A DNA stretch of 64,000 bases. Origin: Naegleria gruberi (Eukaryota). The position numbers and the translations under genes were made by a program. Shown here piece by piece: positions 6,344 through 64,000 of this stretch (its first letter is position 1; the number at the start of each line of letters is the position of its first letter). A model generated the notes under the pieces. That model was not told the origin of the DNA, did not search any database, and saw only the letters and a list, made by a program, of their open reading frames with translations. The stretch is from NCBI GenBank assembly GCA_000004985.1, contig GG738878.1. One strand, given 5' to 3'.

Positions 6344-7566
6344 TTAAACTTCAGTCTTGAGGTGAACAATTTCAGGACCAACTTCATCATATTGTTCCCT
6401 TGTAACACACAAATCAAAGAATGAAGACAAGGTAGCTCTAATACTGCCACCAATCCATGCCAATTGATCTCTCCTATCTCCTGCAACAATACGAATATCC
6501 ATTGAAGATGGTGCCTTCTCTGTCATTTCCTTTGTTAATCTCTCTTCAATACCTTCAAATTTTGTTGAACCACCAGCAAGAACTGAATTACGATACAATG
6601 TCTTACGAACGTCGATTGGTGAACGACTAATTGATTCAAACAAGAGTTCATGTATACCAGATGATTCCATACCAATAAGTTGAGGATAGAAGAGAACTTC
6701 TGGTGCACGGAATCTTTCAGAATTGATTGTAATTGCTGTACCATCAGGTAAGTTGTAAACTTGATCCAAAGATGAACTTTCCTCTGCTTTTTCCATTTCT
6801 TCATCATAATCCAATGGAATGTAACAGTGTTTTTCTTTCATTTGTCTAATAATTTCATGTTCGGCTGTTGTGTGGAAATTGTGGTCCTTTTCACTTAACA
6901 TTTTCATTAAATATTCTGTCACATCTCTTCCAGCAATATTCAATCGGAGTACAGCATGAAGCATGACTGTATTTTAATGAAAATCCAAGAAATTATAATC
7001 GAAACAATTATTCGAAACACAAAATCTATCAAAGGACATTATACAAATAAAAACATACCAAGACCATCATACATTGGAACACAATGAGCTGCACCATCAC
7101 CAACATCCAAACAAACACCTGTCAATCTACCAGAAGCCATCAATGACAATGCTCCTTGAATACCCAAATAAAAAGCAGGAACTTCAAACTTTTCCATTAA
7201 AATTTCACAAACTTTCTCACGTTGTACTTTTGGTGTGAAAGGAGCATCTGTTAATAAAAGTGGTTGTTCCTCAGGTGCTAATTTTAATTCATTGTAATAG
7301 GTGTGAGCAATAACAGATTCCCAGTGATCATAATTTTCAATTGTTCCGTGTACCATTGGATAGTCTAATTGCAAAACACCTCTCTTGGATTGAGCAGAAT
7401 GTCCAACATAATGTTCTCGGTTGACTGTACCAACAAGTACTGAAGTATCTTTTGCTTTACCAATCATATTGGAAAATACGGCACTTGGTGATTGATAACC
7501 AGCAACACCAGCTTTGATGAAGCCAGATCCATTATCGATAACTACTGTTGGAAGTTGTGATGCCAT
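6344..7566 (-). CDS. Actin-related protein (Arp1/centractin-like or divergent actin); 2 exons (7566..7059, 6966..6344), 92-nt intron
   Basis: Actin-fold motifs VVIDNGSGFIKAG, LTDAPFTPK, GVCLDVGDGAAHCVPMYDGL | VMLHAVLRLNIAGRD, GGSTKFEGI, WIGGSI. Intron GTATGT...ACAG at 7058..6967 joins track ORFs 7039..7623 and 6344..6964. Spliced length 377 codons. Confidence 0.75.
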
Positions 7567-7756
7567 TTTTTTTGATGGAAACTTTTGACAGGTGTTATTA
7601 TTTAGATGATGAGTGAAATCCATAAATATTAAAACAATGAAGAAATAAAATTGAAAAGATTTTGAGAAAATAAAATCTTAATCAATTCTTCCAATACACA
7701 ATAGTTAAATTAATTATTCAAATAAATTTTAAATTTGAATAATTTATAATAATAAT

Positions 7757-8498
7757 TTAAATATTTACAAATTTAGTATTTCCATGTTCTGTTACAATCT
7801 TAATCAAAGATCCAGATACAGGTTTTTCTCTACATTCAATCCAATCCACAATCTTTTCAGAAACATGATCCAAAGGAGTCCAATTTGAAAAATCAGCATT
7901 TGGCATTGCATTTCTATTAGCTTCAGTATCCAACATTGAAGGAACAATTCCAACAGTTGTTGTTCCTCTAGGAAGTCCACATTGTTCAGGATCTGCAAAG
8001 CTCTTCACCAAATGATGAACAGAACTCTTAGCCACACCATAAGCCAATGTCACTGGAGTTTTCCCTAAAGCTCCTGCAGCTCCAGGCAAAACCAACAAAC
8101 CATCCTCTCTCATATATTTACTAGCACACAACGCACTCAACAAGGACGATTGAACACTCACTTGCCACATCAAATCAACTTGTGAGAGGAGAGTTGGTTC
8201 CTTCAAATCTCCCATCATGAAACCACCTGCAACATTAATCACAGCCTCCAAATTATTATTATTAGCTGGATTTAGAGAGGAGAGAATTCAAGGCTTTCTC
8301 AATGGTTTGTTGACTCAATTCACCCGAATGATTATTTGCGTTTGATGATGATGCTGAAGGTAATACAATGGAATGATCAGCTTCGGAATTTTCCTTCAAA
8401 TCAATGGAAATGGCAATGAAATTCTTCTTTTTTAAAGAACGGATGAGATTTTTTCCGAGAGCACCAAAGCCACCAAAGACTGCTACGTGTTTAGACAT
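7757..8498 (-). CDS. QDPR: Dihydropteridine reductase (QDPR-type short-chain dehydrogenase) with an apparent +1 frame break at 8252-8264
   Basis: N-term VAVFGGFGALG Rossmann motif. Downstream ORF aligns with QDPR (DLMWQVSVQSS, AGALGKTPVTLAYGVAKSSVHHL, DFSNWTPL, SGSLIKIVTEHG). The two track ORFs (8498..8262 and 8251..7757) are separated by 10 nt in a (taa)4 run and differ by a +1 frame shift. Confidence 0.75.
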
Positions 8499-16298: not shown

Positions 16299-18697
16299 CT
16301 ACAAAGTGAATGTCGCTCCAAACTTTCTCGTCCACCTTTGAATAAAACTCAAAAGTTTCTTAACAACAATTGACAAGGCGTAAATGTCATGAAGAACTGT
16401 GAATCTTAATTTTGGGTCTGAAGGAGAGTAATCTTCCTTGTAGTTCACAATGCTGGACTGATTCAATAATGTTGAATTGTTAAAATCTATCAAAACTGCT
16501 TCAAAATCAGTTTCATTTTTCATTCTGAACATGATATTATGGACACTTATATCACAATGAACAACTCCATGTTCATGTAGACTTTCCAGAGCCCTAAGAC
16601 ATCCAATAACGGACTTTAAAATTATGTTTCTAACTATTACATTGAGATTTTCATAGATTTCGAGTTTTTGTAAAATATCTGTCAACTCTTCATAATTAAG
16701 CAACTTCTCTTGAACAGTTATATACAATAGATTATTGACCGGACCATAATAATAAATTTCACAAATATTAGTATTTTTTAAACCTTGAATAAGATTCATA
16801 ACTTGAATATTTTCAAACTTTTTGTTTGTGATCTTGAAATAAGATTCCTTAGTATTGTATTTCATTGTACCAAGCATTGTCTTTTGTTTTACAAGTTCAA
16901 TATTATAATTTGATCCAATATTCAAGTTATGAATCTCAGATGATAACATTATAACATTATTCTTGTTATCACCGTCATAAGCATCGTTGTCGTTATTATT
17001 GTTATCACTGTCATCATTACCATAATTGTCTTCACAATCAGTATCATTGTCGGTGTCATTATCATTGTGAAATTGCATTGAATTTAGTTGTTCTACAGTT
17101 CGTATAGAAACCTTCAATACGTAATATACAACTTTTTTTGTAGTATTCCTTAATTTGAAAACTAGTTCTATTTCGTTAGTGGGATGGACGCAATTTTTTC
17201 CCCTTAATAATACTTGCAAAGGAAATCCTTCTGTTTGGGCATTGCTTTTTAAAAACACACATGTCCTATTTTTTTCCTTTTTGAAAATATTATCTGCGTA
17301 ACTATTCATAGTATATTTTGTAATGTTTTTGTGGGGAGGTAAGGGAAACGATAATAATTTTGAAAATACATCTAGAGCTTCATTGTAAGAGTTAAATTCT
17401 AATATGTCAAGTGAAGCGAATCGGTCATAATTGAGATTGAAAAATGGTAAGTCACAAAGTCCTGGATGGAACACAGACTTTGATGATGTTGGAGTGTCAG
17501 CAATCTTTTCTACAAACGACAAACTCTTTTGATTGAACTGAGAGTTTAGAAACCTTCTTCCAATCTGAAGAATAATAGACATTACTTTTGAAATACCGTA
17601 TGGAGTAGTGAAATCATACCATATGCTAGTATATAATCTATAACTATAACTAAAATATTGTTTGTTATCAACTTTAGGAATCAAAAATAATCTCAAAAAG
17701 CAAATTTTGGTACCGGCTGATAGAGACCCAAAAACGTCCAACTCAGTGTCAGAACTTAGCAATTTTCTTTCAAACAGTTCAAAGAGCAACTCTGTTAATG
17801 ATCCTCTCATTAACAACACCACTTTCTTAAAGTCAGGATGATCATACACACTATCTATTTCAATAGGTTTCCATTCTCCAAAAAAGAAACGCCAATCAAA
17901 ATTTTCTAAAACATTAACTCTTGTCAATATTGTGCCAGGCATGAAGTATTTTGTTGTGAAATATCGAGTCAGTCTGGATTGGTTGGATAGTGCATCTTCG
18001 TTTACATTTCTTAAAAAGAATTTGAAAATGTTCGTTGAAATACTTACGCTCTCGATGAAATCTGTCCATTAGAAATGCTTGTAAGGTACGAAAATATGAT
18101 TGAGAGTGATTCGTGATAGTTAATTTCATAATTTTGCTCAAAATGCAAGTTTCTTAAAGCAAAGAGAGGAGATAACAACGGATTTGGATTTCCCTTATTG
18201 TAACTTGAAAAAAGATCATTAGAGAACTCTATAGGACAATTCACGTTTCCTATTTTGTCTTTTTGAAGTACCTGAGTCATAGTTTGCTCCAAAAAACTCA
18301 TTTCTTTGTTGTCGTCAAAACCAATACCGCTCTTTTTAAGAGAAATTAAGCCTTTAGCCAAGAAGGATTTAGTACTTGTGTTTAGATGTGGAGCAACTTG
18401 TTGATTATCTGCTTCTATCTGATCTACATGAATTTCATTTACATTTCCATATACATGTTTCATAATCAAATCATTCTTTGTATTATGTGAAGCCTCAACA
18501 TAAGCACTCTCCCATGCAGATTGGAGGTGATTTGGTATTTTGTTTGAAAAGATATCAGAACCAAATGTATGTAAACTAACCACTGAAAGCACATCAAATG
18601 AATCTCCCAATACATCACCATTTAAAAGATTAGCCTTTTGAGTGTTCTTATTAAACATTCCAGGCCAATACAGCATTCCATTTGTTCCGAATATCAA
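16299..18697 (-). CDS. Large protein of unknown function with C-terminal protein-kinase-like (possibly pseudokinase) domain and D/N-rich repeat; 2 exons joined by 74-nt intron (18047..17974)
   Basis: GTAAGT donor overlaps the stop of track ORF 18044..18697. Acceptor ccag at 17974 restores the frame into ORF 16299..17942 (...ISSRA|LTRYFTTKYFMPGTIL...). Kinase-like HGVVHCDISVHNIMF...LIDFN. 5' start uncertain. Confidence 0.5.
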
Positions 18698-27968: not shown

Positions 27969-28055
27969 GCGGGGATGAGTTTGGCTGGTGCTGAATGCAG
28001 CCTTCAAAGCTGTAGCTACTGTTCGGTAGAGAGGATCGATTCCTCCTTTCCCGCG
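27969..28055 (+). tRNA. tRNA-Sec: Selenocysteine tRNA (tRNA-Sec, anticodon UCA), 87 nt, 9/4 acceptor/T-stem fold, long variable arm
   Basis: GCGGGGATGAGTTTGGCTGGTGCTGAATGCAGCCTTCAAAGCTGTAGCTACTGTTCGGTAGAGAGGATCGATTCCTCCTTTCCCGCG. The 9-bp acceptor stem has one U:U mismatch. The anticodon loop cUUCAAa reads UCA. The T-arm is a 4-bp stem plus ATCGATT loop. Near-colinear with human tRNA-Sec as recalled from memory. Confidence 0.8.
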
Positions 28056-28075: not shown

Positions 28076-30025
28076 CTAGTAGTAATGGTCCAAATATTCT
28101 GGATAGTGGATTGGAATGGGATGATCTGGAGCATAAGTGATGCCAGAAATGACATGGGTTAAGGCATTCATACTTTTGATATCAAGCATTTTGATTTTCA
28201 AATTTCGTTCTGGACAGTTCAATAAATGTTCTTCCAAATCTTGTGTTGTACATTCTGTTTTACAACATGGACAAGTGGCTAGAGTCCTTACTGTCTTCTT
28301 ATGGACAATATCAGAAAGGGTGTGAAAATCTTTAAAGTGCTGAGGAATGGCATGTCTTGGCAATGTTTTAAAACATCCAGGACAAATAACTTTAGAGTTT
28401 TGTAGAGCTAATTTGAAGGACTTGCGTTGCTCAATAATTGTATTAATATCTTGGTCGTAATCAATCTCAGGCAGAGAGCTATCATTTTCAATAATTGGTT
28501 TGAATTTGAAATCGATTTGTGGAATTGTTTTAAGTTTGGTGATGGTCTCTTGCGACATTAAAGGTAATCTCTTCAATGAAACCCAACACTTTCTCGATGT
28601 ATCATCAAGAACTGCAATCAGGAGACTTTCATTTTCAAAAACGTCCATATATGGGAATTCAAATAGTATTTTGGTTAGTTTCTTATTTCTCAAGAGAGTG
28701 GAAATTAATTCAAAGTAACTGGATTCATATTGTTTCTTATGTTCATAAAATGAAATCTTAATTGTTGTCAGATTGGACAATCTCGACAATGCATTTTTAA
28801 CAAGGAGTGCATCTTTTGATATTACATTTTCCAATACCAGATTTTTCACATTTTCACATCCTTCAATAAGTGAATTCAGCTTAATTTTAGAGCATGCATC
28901 TCCTATTTTTCTAAGATAAAGATCCTCAATCCTGCTTCCCAAACCCGAAAAATCAAGTGCACAAGACCTTCCAAACAATGTGATGAATCCAAATCCCAAT
29001 GTTAATCGTTTCAGCCTTGGACTGTATCTAATATAGTCACAGAGTTTATCCAGTGCTTCTTGAACTTCGCTCATTTGAATTGTGGAATAGATATCATTTG
29101 GATAAATGTTAATTTCAACTGATTCATGGTCCTTATCTATGACAACTTTGGAAAATAATGAATTAAAATCTCTGACGCTCATATCTGGTAGTCTGATACT
29201 CTTGCATGAGGTATAGAAAATTTCAGAGTCTACTGGAAATAGATCAGTATATTCGGAAGAATAATTTCCAAACGGAACAAACCCATCTGTAAAAAACGAA
29301 TAATGGAAGTGGCATGAATTGTTGAAATACTCAACCAGAGAATTATCAACAACTACAATTTTGGCATTACATATTAAATCAGTCAGGTATCTTTGTGCTG
29401 AAATATTCGATAAGGACACCATCTGCACATCCTTACAAACCTCTGCAAGTAATTTAAACGTATCTGAATCTACTAGTTCATTGAGCATGTCAAAGCATGA
29501 ACTCAGTGATGATTCAGAAAGTGTCAACCGTCTAAGAGCTGGCTCTGATAAACTGTTTGGAAAATAGCTGTCAAAATTAGCCAACCTCTTACAGAACTCT
29601 TCAGTTTCTCTCTGTGATCTATTTGCAATAAAGACATTATCATTATTTCCTTGTATATTCTTCAAAAATCCAAATTGTTTCCTACAAATTACATCCCCAA
29701 CTTGTCCATTCATGAATAAATGTTTAATTGTCATTCCATTTGCTTTCACAAATTTAATCACATATCTAATGAAGGGAAGCAAATTTAATTGAACATTATT
29801 ATTAAAATCATCATGAATATTTGTCAATGGCTTGTTGGTTGTATGTTCTTGGTCATTCAACTCAACATTCGGATACAAATGAAGAGTTTGCAATTTTTCA
29901 ATAATCAATCGTCTCCAAACCGAGCATACATGAGGAATCACTCTTATTAATTGATGAAAATCAATAAATGGAAACAATCGATAGAAAGCAACCTCTTCCG
30001 GCACTTGATCATGAAAATTAATCAT
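28076..30025 (-). CDS. F-box-like protein with LRR-like middle and C-terminal Cys/His zinc-finger region
   Basis: N-term FYRLFPFIDFHQLIRVIPHVCSVWRRLI. C-term CPGCFKTLPRHAIPQHFKDFH...CPCCKTECTTQDLEEHLLNCPE. Confidence 0.45.
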   Translation of the reverse strand: MINFHDQVPEEVAFYRLFPFIDFHQLIRVIPHVCSVWRRLIIEKLQTLHLYPNVELNDQEHTTNKPLTNIHDDFNNNVQLNLLPFIRYVIKFVKANGMTIKHLFMNGQVGDVICRKQFGFLKNIQGNNDNVFIANRSQRETEEFCKRLANFDSYFPNSLSEPALRRLTLSESSLSSCFDMLNELVDSDTFKLLAEVCKDVQMVSLSNISAQRYLTDLICNAKIVVVDNSLVEYFNNSCHFHYSFFTDGFVPFGNYSSEYTDLFPVDSEIFYTSCKSIRLPDMSVRDFNSLFSKVVIDKDHESVEINIYPNDIYSTIQMSEVQEALDKLCDYIRYSPRLKRLTLGFGFITLFGRSCALDFSGLGSRIEDLYLRKIGDACSKIKLNSLIEGCENVKNLVLENVISKDALLVKNALSRLSNLTTIKISFYEHKKQYESSYFELISTLLRNKKLTKILFEFPYMDVFENESLLIAVLDDTSRKCWVSLKRLPLMSQETITKLKTIPQIDFKFKPIIENDSSLPEIDYDQDINTIIEQRKSFKLALQNSKVICPGCFKTLPRHAIPQHFKDFHTLSDIVHKKTVRTLATCPCCKTECTTQDLEEHLLNCPERNLKIKMLDIKSMNALTHVISGITYAPDHPIPIHYPEYLDHYY

Positions 30026-38689: not shown

Positions 38690-40216
38690 ATGTTGCACGC
38701 TTTCCACAAGCCTCTGCAAGTAAACAGAAATGGAACACAAATATTCCTATTGTTGTGTACAAAAAAGAAGCCGATAGCAACAAGAACGTTCGCGAATACT
38801 TTTATATTGTCCTCGTCGGTTCCTTCTAAAGAGTTGTTGTGGAACAAGAACATTTCCATTGATGATAAAATTAAATTCTACAGAACATTTAAAACAAATA
38901 ATCATGATTTATTGGAAATGATTGACATTTGCTTGCTGGTGGCAAATTGTTGTTCCATGATGAAGAGTGAGAAGGAATTTAAAGAGTGTTTATTGGATTT
39001 AAAAAGTTATTGTTCACAATTAAGCGATCAAACAGAAAAAAAAGTGAATGAAAAATCATGGAATTTTATAATTCAACATTTTTGTAAAGAACAAACATTT
39101 CATTCCTATGCCATTTATCTATTTAAAAGAGTTATGCAAGAGAAACAATTAGCATGTCCCAATTTATTTACATTAACTGCCATACTTAAAGTTTGCTCTG
39201 TAGGTAATACCCAAGTTGAATTTTGTGAACAAATTGTTAATGAATTAGAGCAACATGGCGCAATGAATGTATTTTTATACACTCACTTTATTAATAATTG
39301 TATTTGGAATGATGATTTGGAAAGAGCATTAGCAATTGTGTTGAATATGAAAGGCAAAGATATTGAACCAAACTATGCAATTTATATCCCACTTTTAAAA
39401 GCAGCCACTGTTAAGAAAAACATTCAAGTTGGAATGACACTTTACCAACTTGTAAAAAAGAGTAATTTAGCAAGTCCTCAATTATCAACGACAATTATAT
39501 CATTTGCATTGAAATTAAGAAAACCAGAGTTGGTAATAGAAGAAATTGAATTAGTGAAACAACAAAAATGGATGACAATCATAACATGGAATAGTTTAAT
39601 TCAAGCATATATTCAAGAGAACAATATTAAGAAAGCGATTGATGTTATTCATGAAATGAAAGATAATGGTATTTGTCCAGATTCGGCAACTTTTAACATT
39701 CTCATAACAGCTTGTGCTAATACCAAGTTATTTGCAGAAGGAAAGTTGATTCACAAAATTACAACTAACACTTTGAAAGATAATTGCTCTGTTGAACTAT
39801 TGACATCCATTATTAATTTTTATACAAAATGTGGACATCCAGAGATTGCAATCAACGAATGTGAAAAGATGAAATCAAAGGGATTAATGAATGTTGTTTC
39901 TTTTACATGTCTAGTTGAAGCATACATTCAAATAAATGAAATACAAAAAGCCATCGACACAGTTACTGAAATGAAACAATTCAAGGTTACTCCAAACGCT
40001 ACCACATTCTCCATTTTGCTTACCGCATGCGCTAAGTTGAAATTATATAAGGAGGGAATATTGATTCACAAAATTGCAAATAATACTTTGAGAGATAATA
40101 GCTCTCTTAAACTTTTGACATCAATTATTAATTTTTACACAAAATGTGGACATCCAGATATTGCAATTAATGAATGTAAAAAGATATCAAAAAGTATTAT
40201 GGATGGAATTGTTTAA
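38690..40216 (+). CDS. PPR (pentatricopeptide repeat) protein, N-terminal part with mitochondrial-presequence-like start; frame lost at ~40190 and continues in ORF 40273..43038
   Basis: MLHAFHKPLQVNRNGTQIFLLLCTKKKPIATRTF presequence-like. Then 35-aa PPR motifs (ITWNSLIQAYIQENNIKKAIDVIHEMKDNGICPDSATFNILITACAN...). Ends where a 13-nt deletion relative to sister repeats shifts the frame. Confidence 0.6.
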   Translation: MLHAFHKPLQVNRNGTQIFLLLCTKKKPIATRTFANTFILSSSVPSKELLWNKNISIDDKIKFYRTFKTNNHDLLEMIDICLLVANCCSMMKSEKEFKECLLDLKSYCSQLSDQTEKKVNEKSWNFIIQHFCKEQTFHSYAIYLFKRVMQEKQLACPNLFTLTAILKVCSVGNTQVEFCEQIVNELEQHGAMNVFLYTHFINNCIWNDDLERALAIVLNMKGKDIEPNYAIYIPLLKAATVKKNIQVGMTLYQLVKKSNLASPQLSTTIISFALKLRKPELVIEEIELVKQQKWMTIITWNSLIQAYIQENNIKKAIDVIHEMKDNGICPDSATFNILITACANTKLFAEGKLIHKITTNTLKDNCSVELLTSIINFYTKCGHPEIAINECEKMKSKGLMNVVSFTCLVEAYIQINEIQKAIDTVTEMKQFKVTPNATTFSILLTACAKLKLYKEGILIHKIANNTLRDNSSLKLLTSIINFYTKCGHPDIAINECKKISKSIMDGIV

Positions 40217-41850
40217 TTCAAGCATATATTCAAAATAAGGAAGTTCGACAGGCAATTGAAATAATCACAGAAATGCAAGATTATGGTGTTGAACCAAACT
40301 CTACCACTTTTAACATTTTACTCACAGCGTGTGCTGATTCAAAATTGTTTGAAGAAGGAAAGGCAATTCACAAACTTGCAACTGGCACCTTGAAAGATTA
40401 CTCTTCTGAACTTTTAGCATCTATTGTCAACTTTTACACAAAATGTGGACATCCAGAAACAGCCATTAAGGAATGTGAACAATTGAAATCGAAAGGATTA
40501 ATGAACAATATTGTTTGGAATTGTTTAATTCAAGCATATATTCAAAATAAGGAAGTTCGACAGGCAATTGAAGTAATCACAGAAATGCAAGATTATGGTA
40601 TTGAACCAAACTCTACCACTTTTAACATTTTACTTAAAGCATGTGCTGATTCAAAATTATTTGAAGAAGGTAAATTACTGCATCAAGCATCTGGTCAAGT
40701 GCTCAATAATCCTACAATAGAGTTGAACAATAGTATAATTAATTTTTACACAAAATGCGGACATCCAATAATAGCTATTGATCAATTTGAAAAGATGAAA
40801 ACCAAAGGATTTGAGGCAAATGTTATTACTTGGACGTGTTTAATTCAAGCACACGTTCAAAATAAGGAAGTTCGACAGGCAATTGAAGTAATCACAGAAA
40901 TGCAAGATTACGGTATTGAACCAAACTCTACCACTTTTAACATTTTACTCACAGCGTGTGCTGATTCAAAATTATTTGAAGAAGGTAAATTGATTCACGA
41001 ACAAGCAATAGAAAATGTTAAAGATTGCTCTACTGAACTTTTGACATCAATTATTAATTTTTACACAAAATGTGGACATCCAGAAACTGCCATAAAGGAA
41101 TGTGAAAAATTGAAATTGAAGGGATTAATGAACAATGTTGCTGTTTGGAATTGTTTAATTCAAGCACATATTCAAAACAATGAGGTCCAAAAGGCAATTG
41201 AAATAATCACAGAAATGCAACAATTTGGATTGAACCCTGATTCTACAACCTATACTATTATACTTAAGGCATGTACTGATTCAAACTTGTTTGAAGAAGG
41301 GAAGTTTATTCATGAACAAGCAATAGAAAATGTTAAAGATTGCTCTACTGAACTTTTGACATCAATTATTAGTTTTTATACAAAATGTGGACATCCAGAG
41401 GTGTCAATTGGAGAATGTGAAAAATTACAATCGAAGGGATTAATGAACAACATTGCTGTTTGGAATTGTTTAATTCAAGCACATATTCAAAATAACGAAG
41501 TTCAAAAATCAATTAAAATAATCACAGAAATGCAAGATTATGGTATTGAACCAAACTCTACCACTTTTAACATTTTACTCACAGCGTGTGCTGATTCAAA
41601 ATTATTTGAAGAAGGAAAGGCAATCCACAAACTTGCAACTGGCACCTTGAAAGATTACTCTGCTGAACTTTTAGCATCTATTGTCAACTTTTACACAAAA
41701 TGTGGACATCCAGAGGTTTCAATTGAGGAATGTGAACAATTGAAATCAAAGGGATTAATGAACAATGTTGCTATTTGGAATTGTTTAATTCAAGCACATA
41801 TTCAAAATACAACAAATACCCAAAACCCATCTACAATAGAATATGGACTG
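39590..41850 (+). repeat. Tandem array of ~7-8 near-identical ~315-bp units (each = 3 PPR motifs) inside the PPR-DYW gene
   Basis: Unit boundaries at the recurring string ggaattgtttaattcaagcacatattcaaaat at ~39590, 40205, 40515, 40830, 41145, 41460, 41775. Inter-unit DNA identity visibly >85-90%. Confidence 0.7.
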
Positions 41851-54554: not shown

Positions 54555-57500
54555 ATGGCAGCAATTCATCACACGCTTCCACTTTACAAATTGGTGACGA
54601 CGGGAAGGATAACAAGGATGAGTGGTTTTTTCATGATGATTTTAATGGTGGCCATTGCTGTTGTTGTTTTCATGAGAGTCGATGTGGTGCAGAGTAAAAG
54701 ATATGACCTGTCCCAACAATATGATCAGCAACAACTCACTGATGATTCCGAATTGTTTGTTAAAGTGTCGTCTGTGGATTATGAAAGATGGATGATGCAT
54801 CAACCTAATATCGAAAAGGTTTATAGACTTTCAAAGAGAATAAGGAGAGCCAAGGCAGAAATTGATTACAAAACAGAATACCTCTATGTTTTGGGTGAAG
54901 ATCACAATGGTGGTGCTTCTTTTTATATGGATGCGAGTGAGGAAATTATTCCAAAACATGCCAATATTTCAGTAGTATTTGATTATTTGGACGAAGCATT
55001 GGAATATGTCCATGAAAATAAGGATGATCCCTATTTACACAGATTTGTGGTTATTATGCAACAGGGTATTCACAAAGTGAAGGGTAATGAAGCAAGAATT
55101 TCTAGACCTTTCACTTCTATTGTTTCGGAGGACCCAAGATTTCCAGATAGAACCATTATCAGAGCCAATGATATCAATGGTCAGGTGCTTTTCATCGATT
55201 CAACTCATAACATTACAATTAAAGGTGTCACTCTGACTGGTGGGCACTTGGTAAATTTGAAGTTTTCTCACAAGAATGTTCCAAAACCTTGTGGTAGTGG
55301 TAGGTAGTTGACAAATTAATCCATACTGATAACAATTCTCTCAATTTATAGGTTTATTAATTTCTGCTTCAAGCAATATTTTGGTAGAATCTGTATTGTT
55401 ACAAGCAAATAAGGCTGCTATTGGTGGAAGTGTTTGCATTTACAACTCAACTGTTGTCAACTTCCACAAATGTTTCATTAAGAATAGTGTTTCATTCATT
55501 AGAAATATGCTTCTTACAGATAGCTTGAATGGTTTACAATTTTCTGAAGCTTCCAATTTCAATGTTAATAACAGTATTTTTGCTCAAAATTTACCAGCTT
55601 CTAATGATCCAGAAGGTATTTATGGTTGTGGTGGTGGTTTGGGAATATTCAACTCAAATCAAACCATATTTTCTTCATGTGTTTTTGCCAACAATACTGG
55701 TAGGTAATCTATCTTAATAATTTTACTTATTCTAAATTATCAATAGCAATTAACGGAGGAGCCATATTTACAGTTAATTCTTCATTCACTGTAACCAGTA
55801 GCAGAATTAGTGGAAATACAGCTTATAATCAAAGTAGTGGAATTTATAGTGATTGGAATAGTGAGGTTTCCATTGACAAGGTTTTCTTCTTGGAAAATAG
55901 ATGTGTTAGATTGACCTGTAAGATTATCTACTCACCAAAGAAGGAATATTTGGACGATATTTCAAGCTTTAGAGAAGTTGTTTTCCCTGCTATTTGTATT
56001 ACTGGAATTATTCTTTCCATTGGTTTGGGCTTTATTGGTTTATTCGAATTTATTAGAATGGTCAAGCAGAAAAAAAGATGGAGCAATGTAGTTTGGGGAG
56101 ACAAGATTTATTTGTGGCTTTTAGGTGCTTTGGGTATCTATAGGCCTTATGGATCTGTTCCAAGACCTTACAATTGGTTCCACAGAACCCTTATAGTACT
56201 CATTCTCGTTTTGAGTTGCATTCTTCAAGGAATGCAATCAGCTGCAGTTATGCCAGAAGTAAGTTTTCTTTTATTTCAAAATCTTAAACTGTGAAAAGTT
56301 TTTTGATCAAATGGATACTGTAAGATTCACAATCAGCGCTATTCAACAAGTAGTTTTCAATTTCATTCCTCTTGTATGTTATATTGCATTGATATTGGCT
56401 GTTAAGGCAAGCTACAAGAGATTGTTTGTCAACTACAAACCACCAATTCCAACAGAAGTTGAAGTTCAAGAAGAAAATGCTAGTCTCATTAACTTTTATC
56501 AAACTCAAATTGAAAAGGAAAATGAAAGTGTGAACACAGCATCTCCAGTATCTGATCTTTCTGAACAATCTTTTAGAAAAAAGAAGCGTAAGCATGCCTT
56601 TGATTGGAAGAAGGATACTCAAAAGACTGGTCTTCAAAGAAGTATCCATAATAGAAGAGCATTGGCAGGTGTTATTATTTCTGTATTGATTTTGGCATCC
56701 TCTTATGTTATTATTATTTTTGATACCATGTACTTTATTGATTCTAATATTGATATTGCAGCCACTACTAACCAACCTATTGGATTGGATACTATATCAA
56801 GTGCTATTTTCTACATGATGCATTGGCTTTTAAACATGTCAATTATGACCATGGTTTTGCTCACTGTATTCTTACTTTGTAACAGAATTAATTCTTATCA
56901 GAATACTTTCTTTGAAACATTATACCATCAGTTAGAGAGAGCTGTTTTCAATTTGCAAACTGGTGTCTACAGTTATGTTCACCTCAGAAAGGAATGGTAA
57001 GTATAGTATTTCATTTAATTTTCCAACCTATCTGATAGCAAACGTTTGGTGAGATATTCTTGGATTTTAACAATTTCCTATATTATTATTTTCAGTGGAA
57101 TGTGTGTCAATCAAGTTTTAATGGTTTTGTGGGGAGGCTCAGAATTCAAATTCTTTATCTATTATGTAGCAGTTCTTGTTGTAATGCTTGTTCTCATTAC
57201 ACACGTCAGTTATACAAGTAATCACTGGACCAGTTTCAGATTTGATGACTTTTTAGCAGCAGTTCCTCACTCAATTACCTATGATTATGGTATTTTCTTT
57301 GTAAGTTTATTGTCATACACTTTTATTTAATATATAATTTTCATAATTATCAAAAGGTTCCTGGAGCTAATAAGAAACTTTCACTTCCAAAAACTGAAAT
57401 TAATGACAATCTCAGACTCAATGATGGTGCATTCCCAGCTGGAGAAAGCAAGGATAAAGCTGAGCAATTGTTGAGAGATTTAACCTTCTTCCATATGTAC

Positions 57501-62966: not shown

Positions 62967-64000
62967 ATGAGAATATCAATGGATGATGATCGATCAAGTT
63001 CGGATCTATCAATACAATCGGAGGAAAATACACCACCACCAATAGCAGGAATAACGAATGACAATGCTCTTGTTACAACTGATACTAATGATGGTACTGG
63101 GAATGTTGGGAATATTCCACCTCCTCCACCATTATCAAGTGTAGTTCCTGTTTATTTACCAGCGAATTTGATGAAACCAATAGAAGTAGTGCCACGCATA
63201 CCTACTAATGGGTCTTTTTCAGACTCATCTGAAAGTGATGATGATGAGGATTTGGGGTATCATCGTCCTATACAACCACCAATTGAGACTCCTATCAAAC
63301 CAAGAGTTTTTAAAGAACCAACTTATGACCAAATTAAACCAGTCATTGGAATACCAATTCCGAATGCAAATACAGATAGAACTAATGAAATTATGTCTGG
63401 ATGGATCACTAAATATAATTATGATAATGTTCCTCCAGAAGCATTGATGGAAATTTTCAAATTTGTAGATGTCAAAACCTTGTCAACGTAAGTTTTTAAA
63501 AACAACTACAATTTTGAAACATTTGAATAGTTGTTCCCTTGTTTCAAAGAATTGGCACTTTGCCACACTTCATGACGCCTTGTGGGAAGATTCAGTGAGG
63601 AAATTATTTGAAAGATTTAACAATCAAGAATCTGACTGTAAGTATATAGAAATACGTGTGTAGTATTTAAAAACAATAATATTTGGAATAATTTACAACC
63701 TTATAGACTATGCAATTGATTGTGGAAGAATGAATAAGAAGTATGGTACTCCAATTAAACCTCCTCCAAAAATTAAAAAGATTGAGGATTATGTAACAAT
63801 AGAGAATGGTAAAATTGTTTCCTATCACACTCTAAGAGCATTGAATATTGAACAAGGAAAGAAAAAACTCATTTCCAAATTGAAAAGAGACAGAAAGGAA
63901 TATTGGAGAACAAAGTTCCAAGAGAAGTATGACAATGCCTCTTCGTAAGTTTTTGGAAAACAAAGTTTTATTTACCTCTTTAAACAGACTCAAGTATAGA
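62967..64000 (+). CDS. F-box protein, 5' part (>=4 exons; continues beyond window end)
   Basis: Exon ends ...PPEALMEIFKFVDVKTLST with GTAAGT donor at ~63487. Next exon CSLVSKNWHFATLHDALWEDSVRKLFERFNNQESD completes the F-box. Further GTAAGT-bounded exons at 63705.. and a donor at ~63945. Start codon choice (62967) uncertain. Confidence 0.5.

Follow-up and report, generated by a model that had tools for sequence, protein, structure and literature searches.

Is a conserved enzyme gene that breaks off at a run of stop codons and resumes in another reading frame decoded in a special way, spliced, or merely out of phase? This question is raised by an unannotated orthologue of dihydropteridine reductase (QDPR, also DHPR) in Naegleria gruberi NEG-M, which occupies positions 7757–8498 on the minus strand of the 64,000 nucleotides analysed here (hereafter the window, i.e., the whole stretch of DNA). 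A first-pass annotation had placed three explanations side by side, namely an indel in the repeat or an assembly error, a recent pseudogene, and +1 translational recoding at a stop codon.

Results

A dihydropteridine reductase encoded in two reading frames

The 78-codon ORF in frame 0 (MSKHVAVFGGFGALGKNLIRSLKKKNFIAISIDLKENSEADHSIVLPSASSSNANNHSGELSQQTIEKALNSLLSKSS, beginning MSKHVAVFGG and ending LNSLLSKSS) spans the Rossmann strand 1 with its GGxGxLG motif through helix 59–75. The 3′ segment, which bears the NVAGG motif, the catalytic Tyr153/Lys157 pair, and the LDT..NR motif, lies in the +1 frame and is unbroken from NNNNLEAVINVAGG to the terminal KFVNI and its stop codon (Table 1). Skipping a single base joins both segments into a fused protein of 246 amino acids. 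This protein aligns over residues 3–243 with human (1hdr, E 4.4e-49) and rat (1dhr) DHPR in the PDB, in agreement with the earlier proposal that the junction SKSS-NNNN-LEAVINVAGG has the spacing of human QDPR. All of the seven best PDB matches are DHPR/QDPR structures (E 4e-49 to 6e-38), and the next SDR follows at 3e-07. The Pfam family adh_short covers residues 3–198 with 33.7 bits (cutoff 26.6). In alignment A1, the glycine motif VFGGFGALG corresponds to residues 7–15, with G9, G10, G12, L14, and G15 nearly invariant, while A90, G91, and G92 (within NVAGG), Y153 and K157 (within AYGVAKSS), D190, T191, N194, and R195 are invariant. By each criterion of sequence and predicted structure that we tested, the N. 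gruberi gene belongs to the QDPR/DHPR family, save for the continuity of its ORF: instead of the continuous frame of about 240 codons typical for the family, the deposited sequence holds the two halves in frames 0 and +1.

Table 1. Features of the QDPR locus and of a second frame-broken gene in the window.
Feature	Position	Strand	Description
QDPR 5′ segment, frame 0	8265..8498	-	ATG at 8496-8498, then 78 codons, MSKHVAVFGGFGALG...ALNSLLSKSS; aligns to human DHPR residues 11 to ~80
QDPR 3′ segment, +1 frame	7757..8263	-	NNNNLEAVINVAGG...YGVAKSS...LDTEANR...SGSLIKIVTEHGNTKFVNI; stop TAA at 7757-7759
TAATAATAATAAT	8252..8264	-	Frame 0: four TAA stops (8253-8264); +1 frame: orphan T (8264) and (AAT)4 Asn tract (8252-8263)
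Two-frame overlap zone	8265..8287	-	Frame 0 and +1 frame both open, 23 nt; lesion within the zone or at T 8264
Rejected 58-nt pseudo-intron	8266..8323	-	G|GTGAATTGAG...TTCTCTCCTCTCTAAATCCAG|, donor GTGAAT; restores the frame, deletes helix 59-75
Divergent neighbour gene, 467 aa	8599..10002	+	59% identity, E 3e-163, to a 466-aa N. lovaniensis gene divergent from QDPR (L005)
Actin-family gene, first exon	7039..7623	-	Pfam Actin 1.3e-45; downstream of QDPR; GTATGT intron at ~7058-6967
PPR ORF, 508 aa	38690-40216	+	Overlaps the next ORF out of frame
PPR-E-DYW ORF, 921 aa	40273-43038	+	DYW deaminase 3e-33; complete PPR motif upstream of the first ATG

The gene has left no trace in the protein catalogue of the species. 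Five of the ten long ORFs in the window are exactly equal to annotated NEG-M proteins (XP_0026753xx/XP_0026754xx). A protein-database similarity search with the fused QDPR retrieved no N. gruberi protein, and consequently the gene has neither a model nor an annotated paralogue in the catalogue. Exact look-ups in the protein collection gave no match for the 78-aa ORF, the C-terminal ORFs starting at ATG or TTG, the two repaired proteins, or a spliced model, and none for the protein of the neighbouring gene. A metagenome scan with the fused protein yielded only relatives of 26–28% identity, and we found no paper on N. gruberi QDPR in the literature.

Elsewhere in the window, the 634-aa protein XP_002675435 (21349–23253, minus strand) shares a 90%-identity cluster with the 641-aa protein P0033, encoded on a 3.1 kb contig of an ENA assembly. 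Thus, a close relative of N. gruberi is represented in one or more public assemblies, environmental or other; the contig with P0033 does not cover the QDPR locus.

Uninterrupted orthologues at a syntenic locus

The closest database proteins are a “dihydropteridine reductase” of N. lovaniensis (P0002), a fragment from N. fowleri (P0004), and two unnamed environmental proteins (P0001 and P0003), to which the fused N. gruberi QDPR is 62–67% identical. We inspected the loci of N. lovaniensis (L005) and of two environmental Naegleria-clade species (L001/L002 and L003/L004). Each of the four Naegleria-clade orthologues is encoded by one uninterrupted, intronless ORF with no stop at the position of the break. 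The gene neighbourhood is shared as well: the divergently oriented neighbour has its counterpart in N. lovaniensis (Table 1), and an actin-family gene (PF00022) likewise lies downstream of QDPR in that species. Judged from the sequence comparison, the N. gruberi locus is orthologous to the N. lovaniensis QDPR locus.

The stop codons are an asparagine tract read out of phase

On the minus strand, the break region reads GCC TTG AAT TCT CTC CTC TCT AAA TCC AGC TAA TAA TAA TAA TTT GGA GGC TGT. The halves are offset by +1 around a (TAA)4 run, as had been noted before, and this run is located at 8253–8264 within the 13-nt TAATAATAATAAT. In the +1 frame, the same region reads AAT AAT AAT AAT TTG GAG GCT GTG ATT AAT GTT GCA GGT GGT, and this frame is open upstream as far as a TGA at 8288–8290. 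The two open frames thus overlap by 23 nt, which leaves room for a shift elsewhere than at the TAA.

Homology narrows the position further. It supports frame 0 through LNSLLS, where I-E-K-A-L-N-S-L-L-S matches LIEQNLNKILS of the environmental orthologue P0001 with the same hydrophobic spacing, and it supports the +1 frame from (A)NNNNLEAV onward, where (A)NNNNLEAVINV matches ANNKLDAVVNV of N. lovaniensis. The latter match extends to the codons, GCT AAT AAT AAT AAT TTG in N. gruberi corresponding to GCC AAT AAC AAA TTG in N. lovaniensis. On this basis, the lesion is one extra base or two missing bases, placed roughly at 8264–8274 (TCT AAA TCC AGC T). The four “stop codons” are an AAT asparagine tract that is out of phase by one base. 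As an ORF ends at the first stop after any change of phase, and as (TAA)4 is a shifted (AAT)4, a break “exactly at TAA” is no independent coincidence. The earlier description of a break exactly at an in-frame TAA is therefore correct for the end of the first ORF, which does terminate there, but goes too far for the lesion itself, which may lie anywhere within about 8264–8274.

Runs of at least four AAT-type trinucleotide units occur five times in the 64-kb window. The break falls into a surface loop whose length varies from three to nine residues among the orthologues, which marks this loop as an evolutionary hot spot for indels.

Apart from the break, the gene shows no decay

If the gene had been released from selection long ago, further damage would be visible. 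Instead, of the 38 columns without variation among nine homologues, N. gruberi keeps 37, which, together with the end-to-end match to human DHPR, bears out the first-pass view of two well-conserved halves. The sole changed column is a Lys-to-Asn replacement just before LEAV, within the AAT tract. Identity to two outgroups amounts to 48.3% and 49.8% for N. gruberi, compared to 48.3–48.7% and 44.7–49.8% for the intact Naegleria-clade orthologues; since these values are equal, there is no acceleration of the evolutionary rate. The relative-rate and invariant-column tests rule out a long-standing pseudogene.

The AlphaFold2 model of the fused protein, computed from alignment A1, shows alternating strands and helices (mean pLDDT 91, pTM 0.90). 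It predicts a helix at residues 59–75 (pLDDT about 94), a loop at 76–82 that contains the break, and a strand at 83–88 (LEAVIN). Translation of the first ORF alone would give a 78-aa product devoid of the catalytic Tyr and Lys. Phenylalanine hydroxylase, a user of BH4, is expressed in N. fowleri (PMC7326272), which indicates that QDPR has a role in the genus.

Introns that restore the frame remove conserved protein

We listed all GT..AG, GC..AG, and AT..AC pairs spaced by 10–400 nt across the locus. According to the first-pass annotation, the break cannot be attributed to any GT..AG pair. Taken literally, this is wrong, since 71 GT..AG pairs in this size range restore a single ORF. Its conclusion against an intron nevertheless holds, because none of these pairs is compatible with homology or structure: all frame-restoring candidates either delete conserved motifs or, as the 58-nt and 49-nt candidates do, delete the homologous structural helix. 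A 97-nt alternative removes NVAGG itself.

Genuine introns of the window, read by eye, provide a useful local yardstick for such candidates. They are about 38–92 nt long and AT-rich, with donors GTAAGT, GTATGT, or GTAGGT and acceptors TAG, CAG, or AAG (6967–7058, 17990–18090, 55690–55760, and 63470–63600).

The best candidate for a short spliceosomal intron spans 58 nt (8323..8266), and its removal would give a 227-aa protein that retains NVAGG. It has a length of 1 mod 3, GT..AG ends, and a pyrimidine tract (TTCTCTCCTCTCT) before the AG, and its size falls within the 38–92-nt range of the real introns. However, its donor GTGAAT lacks the G at +5 that every clear intron of the window possesses, and its GC content of 0.40 is at the level of coding sequence, compared to 0.17–0.23 in clearly defined real introns. 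Its interior translates in frame 0 into the very segment that is homologous to LIEQNLNKILS of the orthologues and is predicted with confidence to form the Rossmann-fold helix 59–75. Further, the orthologues are all intronless, and the 58-nt spliced model is absent from the protein collection. We therefore regard splicing as a very improbable solution.

A second frame-broken gene in the window

As a control, we scanned the window for pairs of same-strand ORFs that overlap in different frames. Most of these pairs reflect ordinary GTAAGT introns, as in the WD40 gene at 34.9 kb. A different case is a gene for a PPR-DYW protein, which is divided between two ORFs (Table 1) and encodes a complete PPR motif (YYGWNCLIQAYIQNKEVRQAIEIITEM) upstream of the first ATG of the second ORF. 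At the junction (about 40142–40222), one copy of an internal repeat of about 315 nt is a net 13–16 nt shorter than six paralogous copies, which points to a real deletion rather than a slip in base calling. Judged by this repeat comparison, a real deletion has split or pseudogenised this gene, which resembles plant-type RNA-editing factors. A 47-nt GTAAAA..TTCAAG “intron” would restore its frame, but it would remove the conserved WNCLIQ codons, and the spliced model is absent from the protein collection. Thus, QDPR is not the only gene with a frame lesion in these 64 kb, and frame lesions in the window are not tied to stop-codon contexts.

The window also contains a selenocysteine tRNA gene with the anticodon TCA at 27969–28055 on the plus strand (ARAGORN; Rfam RF01852, 69.8 bits with a gathering score of 47), just upstream of a gene for a 649-aa protein at 28076–30025. 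It shows that the Naegleria genome carries selenocysteine-decoding machinery.

Discussion

Decoding of the broken frame

Could the two segments still yield an enzyme from the sequence as deposited? One way would be a programmed +1 frameshift, in which the ribosome pauses while Ser-AGC occupies the P site and UAA the A site, the U is skipped, and AAU is read next (AGC-U-AAU), so that full-length QDPR is made. The +1 sites of antizyme (UCC UGA U), prfB (CUU UGA C), and Euplotes (AAA UAA) share a stop codon in the A site, the skip of one base yields perfect family spacing, and the gene shows no decay, all of which speak for this possibility. In contrast, none of the four Naegleria-clade orthologues, each a single ORF, has the shift, and UCC AGC UAA UAA corresponds to none of the contexts known to be prone to shifts (e.g., CUU-AGG-C, UCC-UGA-U, CUU-UGA-C, AAA-UAA). 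By base-pairing rules, AGC should re-pair poorly on GCU, as tRNA-Ser(GCU) would face a central mismatch on this +1 codon. We detected no stimulatory RNA structure, with MFE z scores relative to shuffled controls of +0.37 for the 125 nt downstream and +0.50 for the 131 nt across the site, and an Rfam search at the break site gave no match at E <= 1. Moreover, four tandem UAA codons argue for termination rather than bypass, and the 23-nt overlap of both frames means that the position of the shift is not tied to the stop. A literature search found no paper that links Naegleria with programmed frameshifting. We therefore deem it highly improbable that the deposited sequence is right in all alleles and that the first UAA is bypassed in this manner. 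If it were, Heterolobosea would have its first described programmed frameshift, residing in a housekeeping metabolic enzyme, at a recoding site of very recent origin that operates with neither a known slippery codon nor a stimulator.

Even less credible, to the point of being negligible, is a functional split enzyme, whose 78-aa N-terminal and about 153–164-aa C-terminal ORFs would be translated apart and assemble non-covalently. In its favour, neither ORF is damaged, and 14 codons into the second half lies an in-frame ATG (MMGDLKEP...). However, re-initiation 40 nt past four stops would be abnormal for a eukaryotic monocistronic mRNA, a start at the internal ATG would drop strand 83–88 together with NVAGG, and the orthologues are single chains. 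To our knowledge, there is no precedent for a split SDR Rossmann fold.

Two events at the level of RNA were rejected as well. For transcriptional slippage, the overlap zone offers homopolymers of at most 3 nt, and a slip along the TAA/AAT units amounts to 3 nt and leaves the frame unchanged. Editing in heteroloboseans is substitutional and organellar, acting on mitochondrial transcripts, and nuclear RNA editing has no support at QDPR.

A probable ordinary phase lesion

Most likely, the break is an ordinary 1-nt phase lesion that involves no special decoding mechanism. Accordingly, among the three explanations of the first-pass annotation, an indel in the repeat or an assembly error and a recent pseudogene both fit all findings, while +1 recoding at a stop is unsupported. 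The lesion lies on the 5′ border of the (AAT)4 tract or a short distance before it, in the loop between helix 59–75 and strand 83–88. From there, two scenarios lead to a cell that still has an uninterrupted QDPR ORF. In the first, the draft Sanger consensus would be wrong at the repeat, for example because a column was mis-called between two alleles with unequal numbers of repeat units; if one allele had (AAT)4 and the other (AAT)5, a majority-rule consensus could retain part of a unit, namely the orphan T. In the second, the locus would be heterozygous and the assembler would have taken up its null allele, the other allele being intact. Naegleria has been described as mainly heterozygous diploid (PMC9928731). 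Because the gene is otherwise perfect and single copy, a BH4-using pathway is expressed in N. fowleri, and the genus is mainly heterozygous diploid, we lean toward an intact ORF in the cell, by way of a consensus error or a heterozygous null allele, and it is in this sense that we infer an artefactual or allele-specific lesion. Against this reading stand the lack of gaps or ambiguity codes in the window that would suggest low coverage and the 13–16-nt deletion in the PPR-DYW gene, a demonstration that this genome does harbour real disabling indels. Short AT trinucleotide repeats, moreover, are not classic sites of Sanger errors.

The main competitor is a fixed, recent loss, to which we assign a smaller yet appreciable likelihood. 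The frameshift would then be real in all NEG-M copies, perhaps as a result of decades of axenic culture, and QDPR would be a very young unitary pseudogene from which only the N-terminal fragment of 78 residues, without the catalytic Tyr and Lys, would be made. NEG-M is an old laboratory strain maintained in axenic culture, and loss of a cofactor-recycling enzyme might be tolerated in it. The deposited sequence contains the lesion and gives no hint of low coverage, a real frame-disrupting indel occurs in the same window, the annotators made no gene model at QDPR, and the loop accumulates indels across species. On the other hand, the absence of any other damage, with all but one of the invariant residues kept and no rate acceleration, implies that any loss must be extremely recent. 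It would also have struck the only QDPR homologue retrieved for N. gruberi, in a genus with an active BH4-consuming pathway. Heterolobosean studies settle such frameshift cases by read mapping (10.64898/2026.08.18.745565); a literature search found no reassembly of NEG-M.

Irrespective of which of these origins applies, the main use of our analysis is a correction of the annotation: N. gruberi carries QDPR. Going by its sequence, the gene is present and essentially intact, but it is missing from the reference protein catalogue of the species because of the frame break. Without a QDPR model, comparative and pangenome studies that start from proteomes would score tetrahydrobiopterin recycling as absent from N. 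gruberi. If the lesion is real and fixed, it would represent a very young loss of BH4 recycling in NEG-M; if it is decoded, it would be a new recoding event, against which the evidence argues. The locus also calls for caution in searches for recoding, as out-of-phase AAT tracts mimic “tandem stop” recoding sites by a mechanical effect of phase and carry no recoding signal.

Comparison with known systems

With the known DHPRs, i.e., human 1HDR, rat 1DHR, Dictyostelium 3ORF, and N. lovaniensis C9374_001066, the N. gruberi protein shares GGxGxLG, NVAGG, Y-x3-K, LDT..NR, and alignment over the full length. In contrast to them, the N. gruberi copy has its frame shifted by +1 in the loop that precedes strand 4 and is absent from the protein catalogue of its species.

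With antizyme +1 frameshifting at UCC UGA U, the locus has in common an in-frame stop at the shift point and the need for a +1 shift to obtain the full-length product. The antizyme site has been conserved between yeast and mammals, combines a defined UCC-UGA context with stimulators on its 5′ and 3′ sides, and is under polyamine regulation, whereas the N. gruberi site is species-specific, has an AGC UAA context, and shows no stimulatory structure. The +1 frameshifting of Euplotes at AAA-UAA/UAG resembles it in that a UAA in the AT-rich genome of a protist would require a +1 bypass. Euplotes sites, however, have a slippery AAA Lys codon before the stop and are found in many genes. In N. gruberi, the P-site codon is AGC, and the 64 kb contain just one further frame break, the 13–16-nt deletion, which is not associated with a stop. 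The N. gruberi break therefore resembles the antizyme and Euplotes sites only in the stop that ends the first frame and departs from them in their testable defining features.

The closest likeness is to frameshifted genes of draft assemblies, young unitary pseudogenes, and null alleles. Nothing sets N. gruberi QDPR apart from this class: a conserved gene, present in a single copy and perfect in all other respects, has its phase disrupted at one point beside a simple repeat, and the relatives do not share this lesion.
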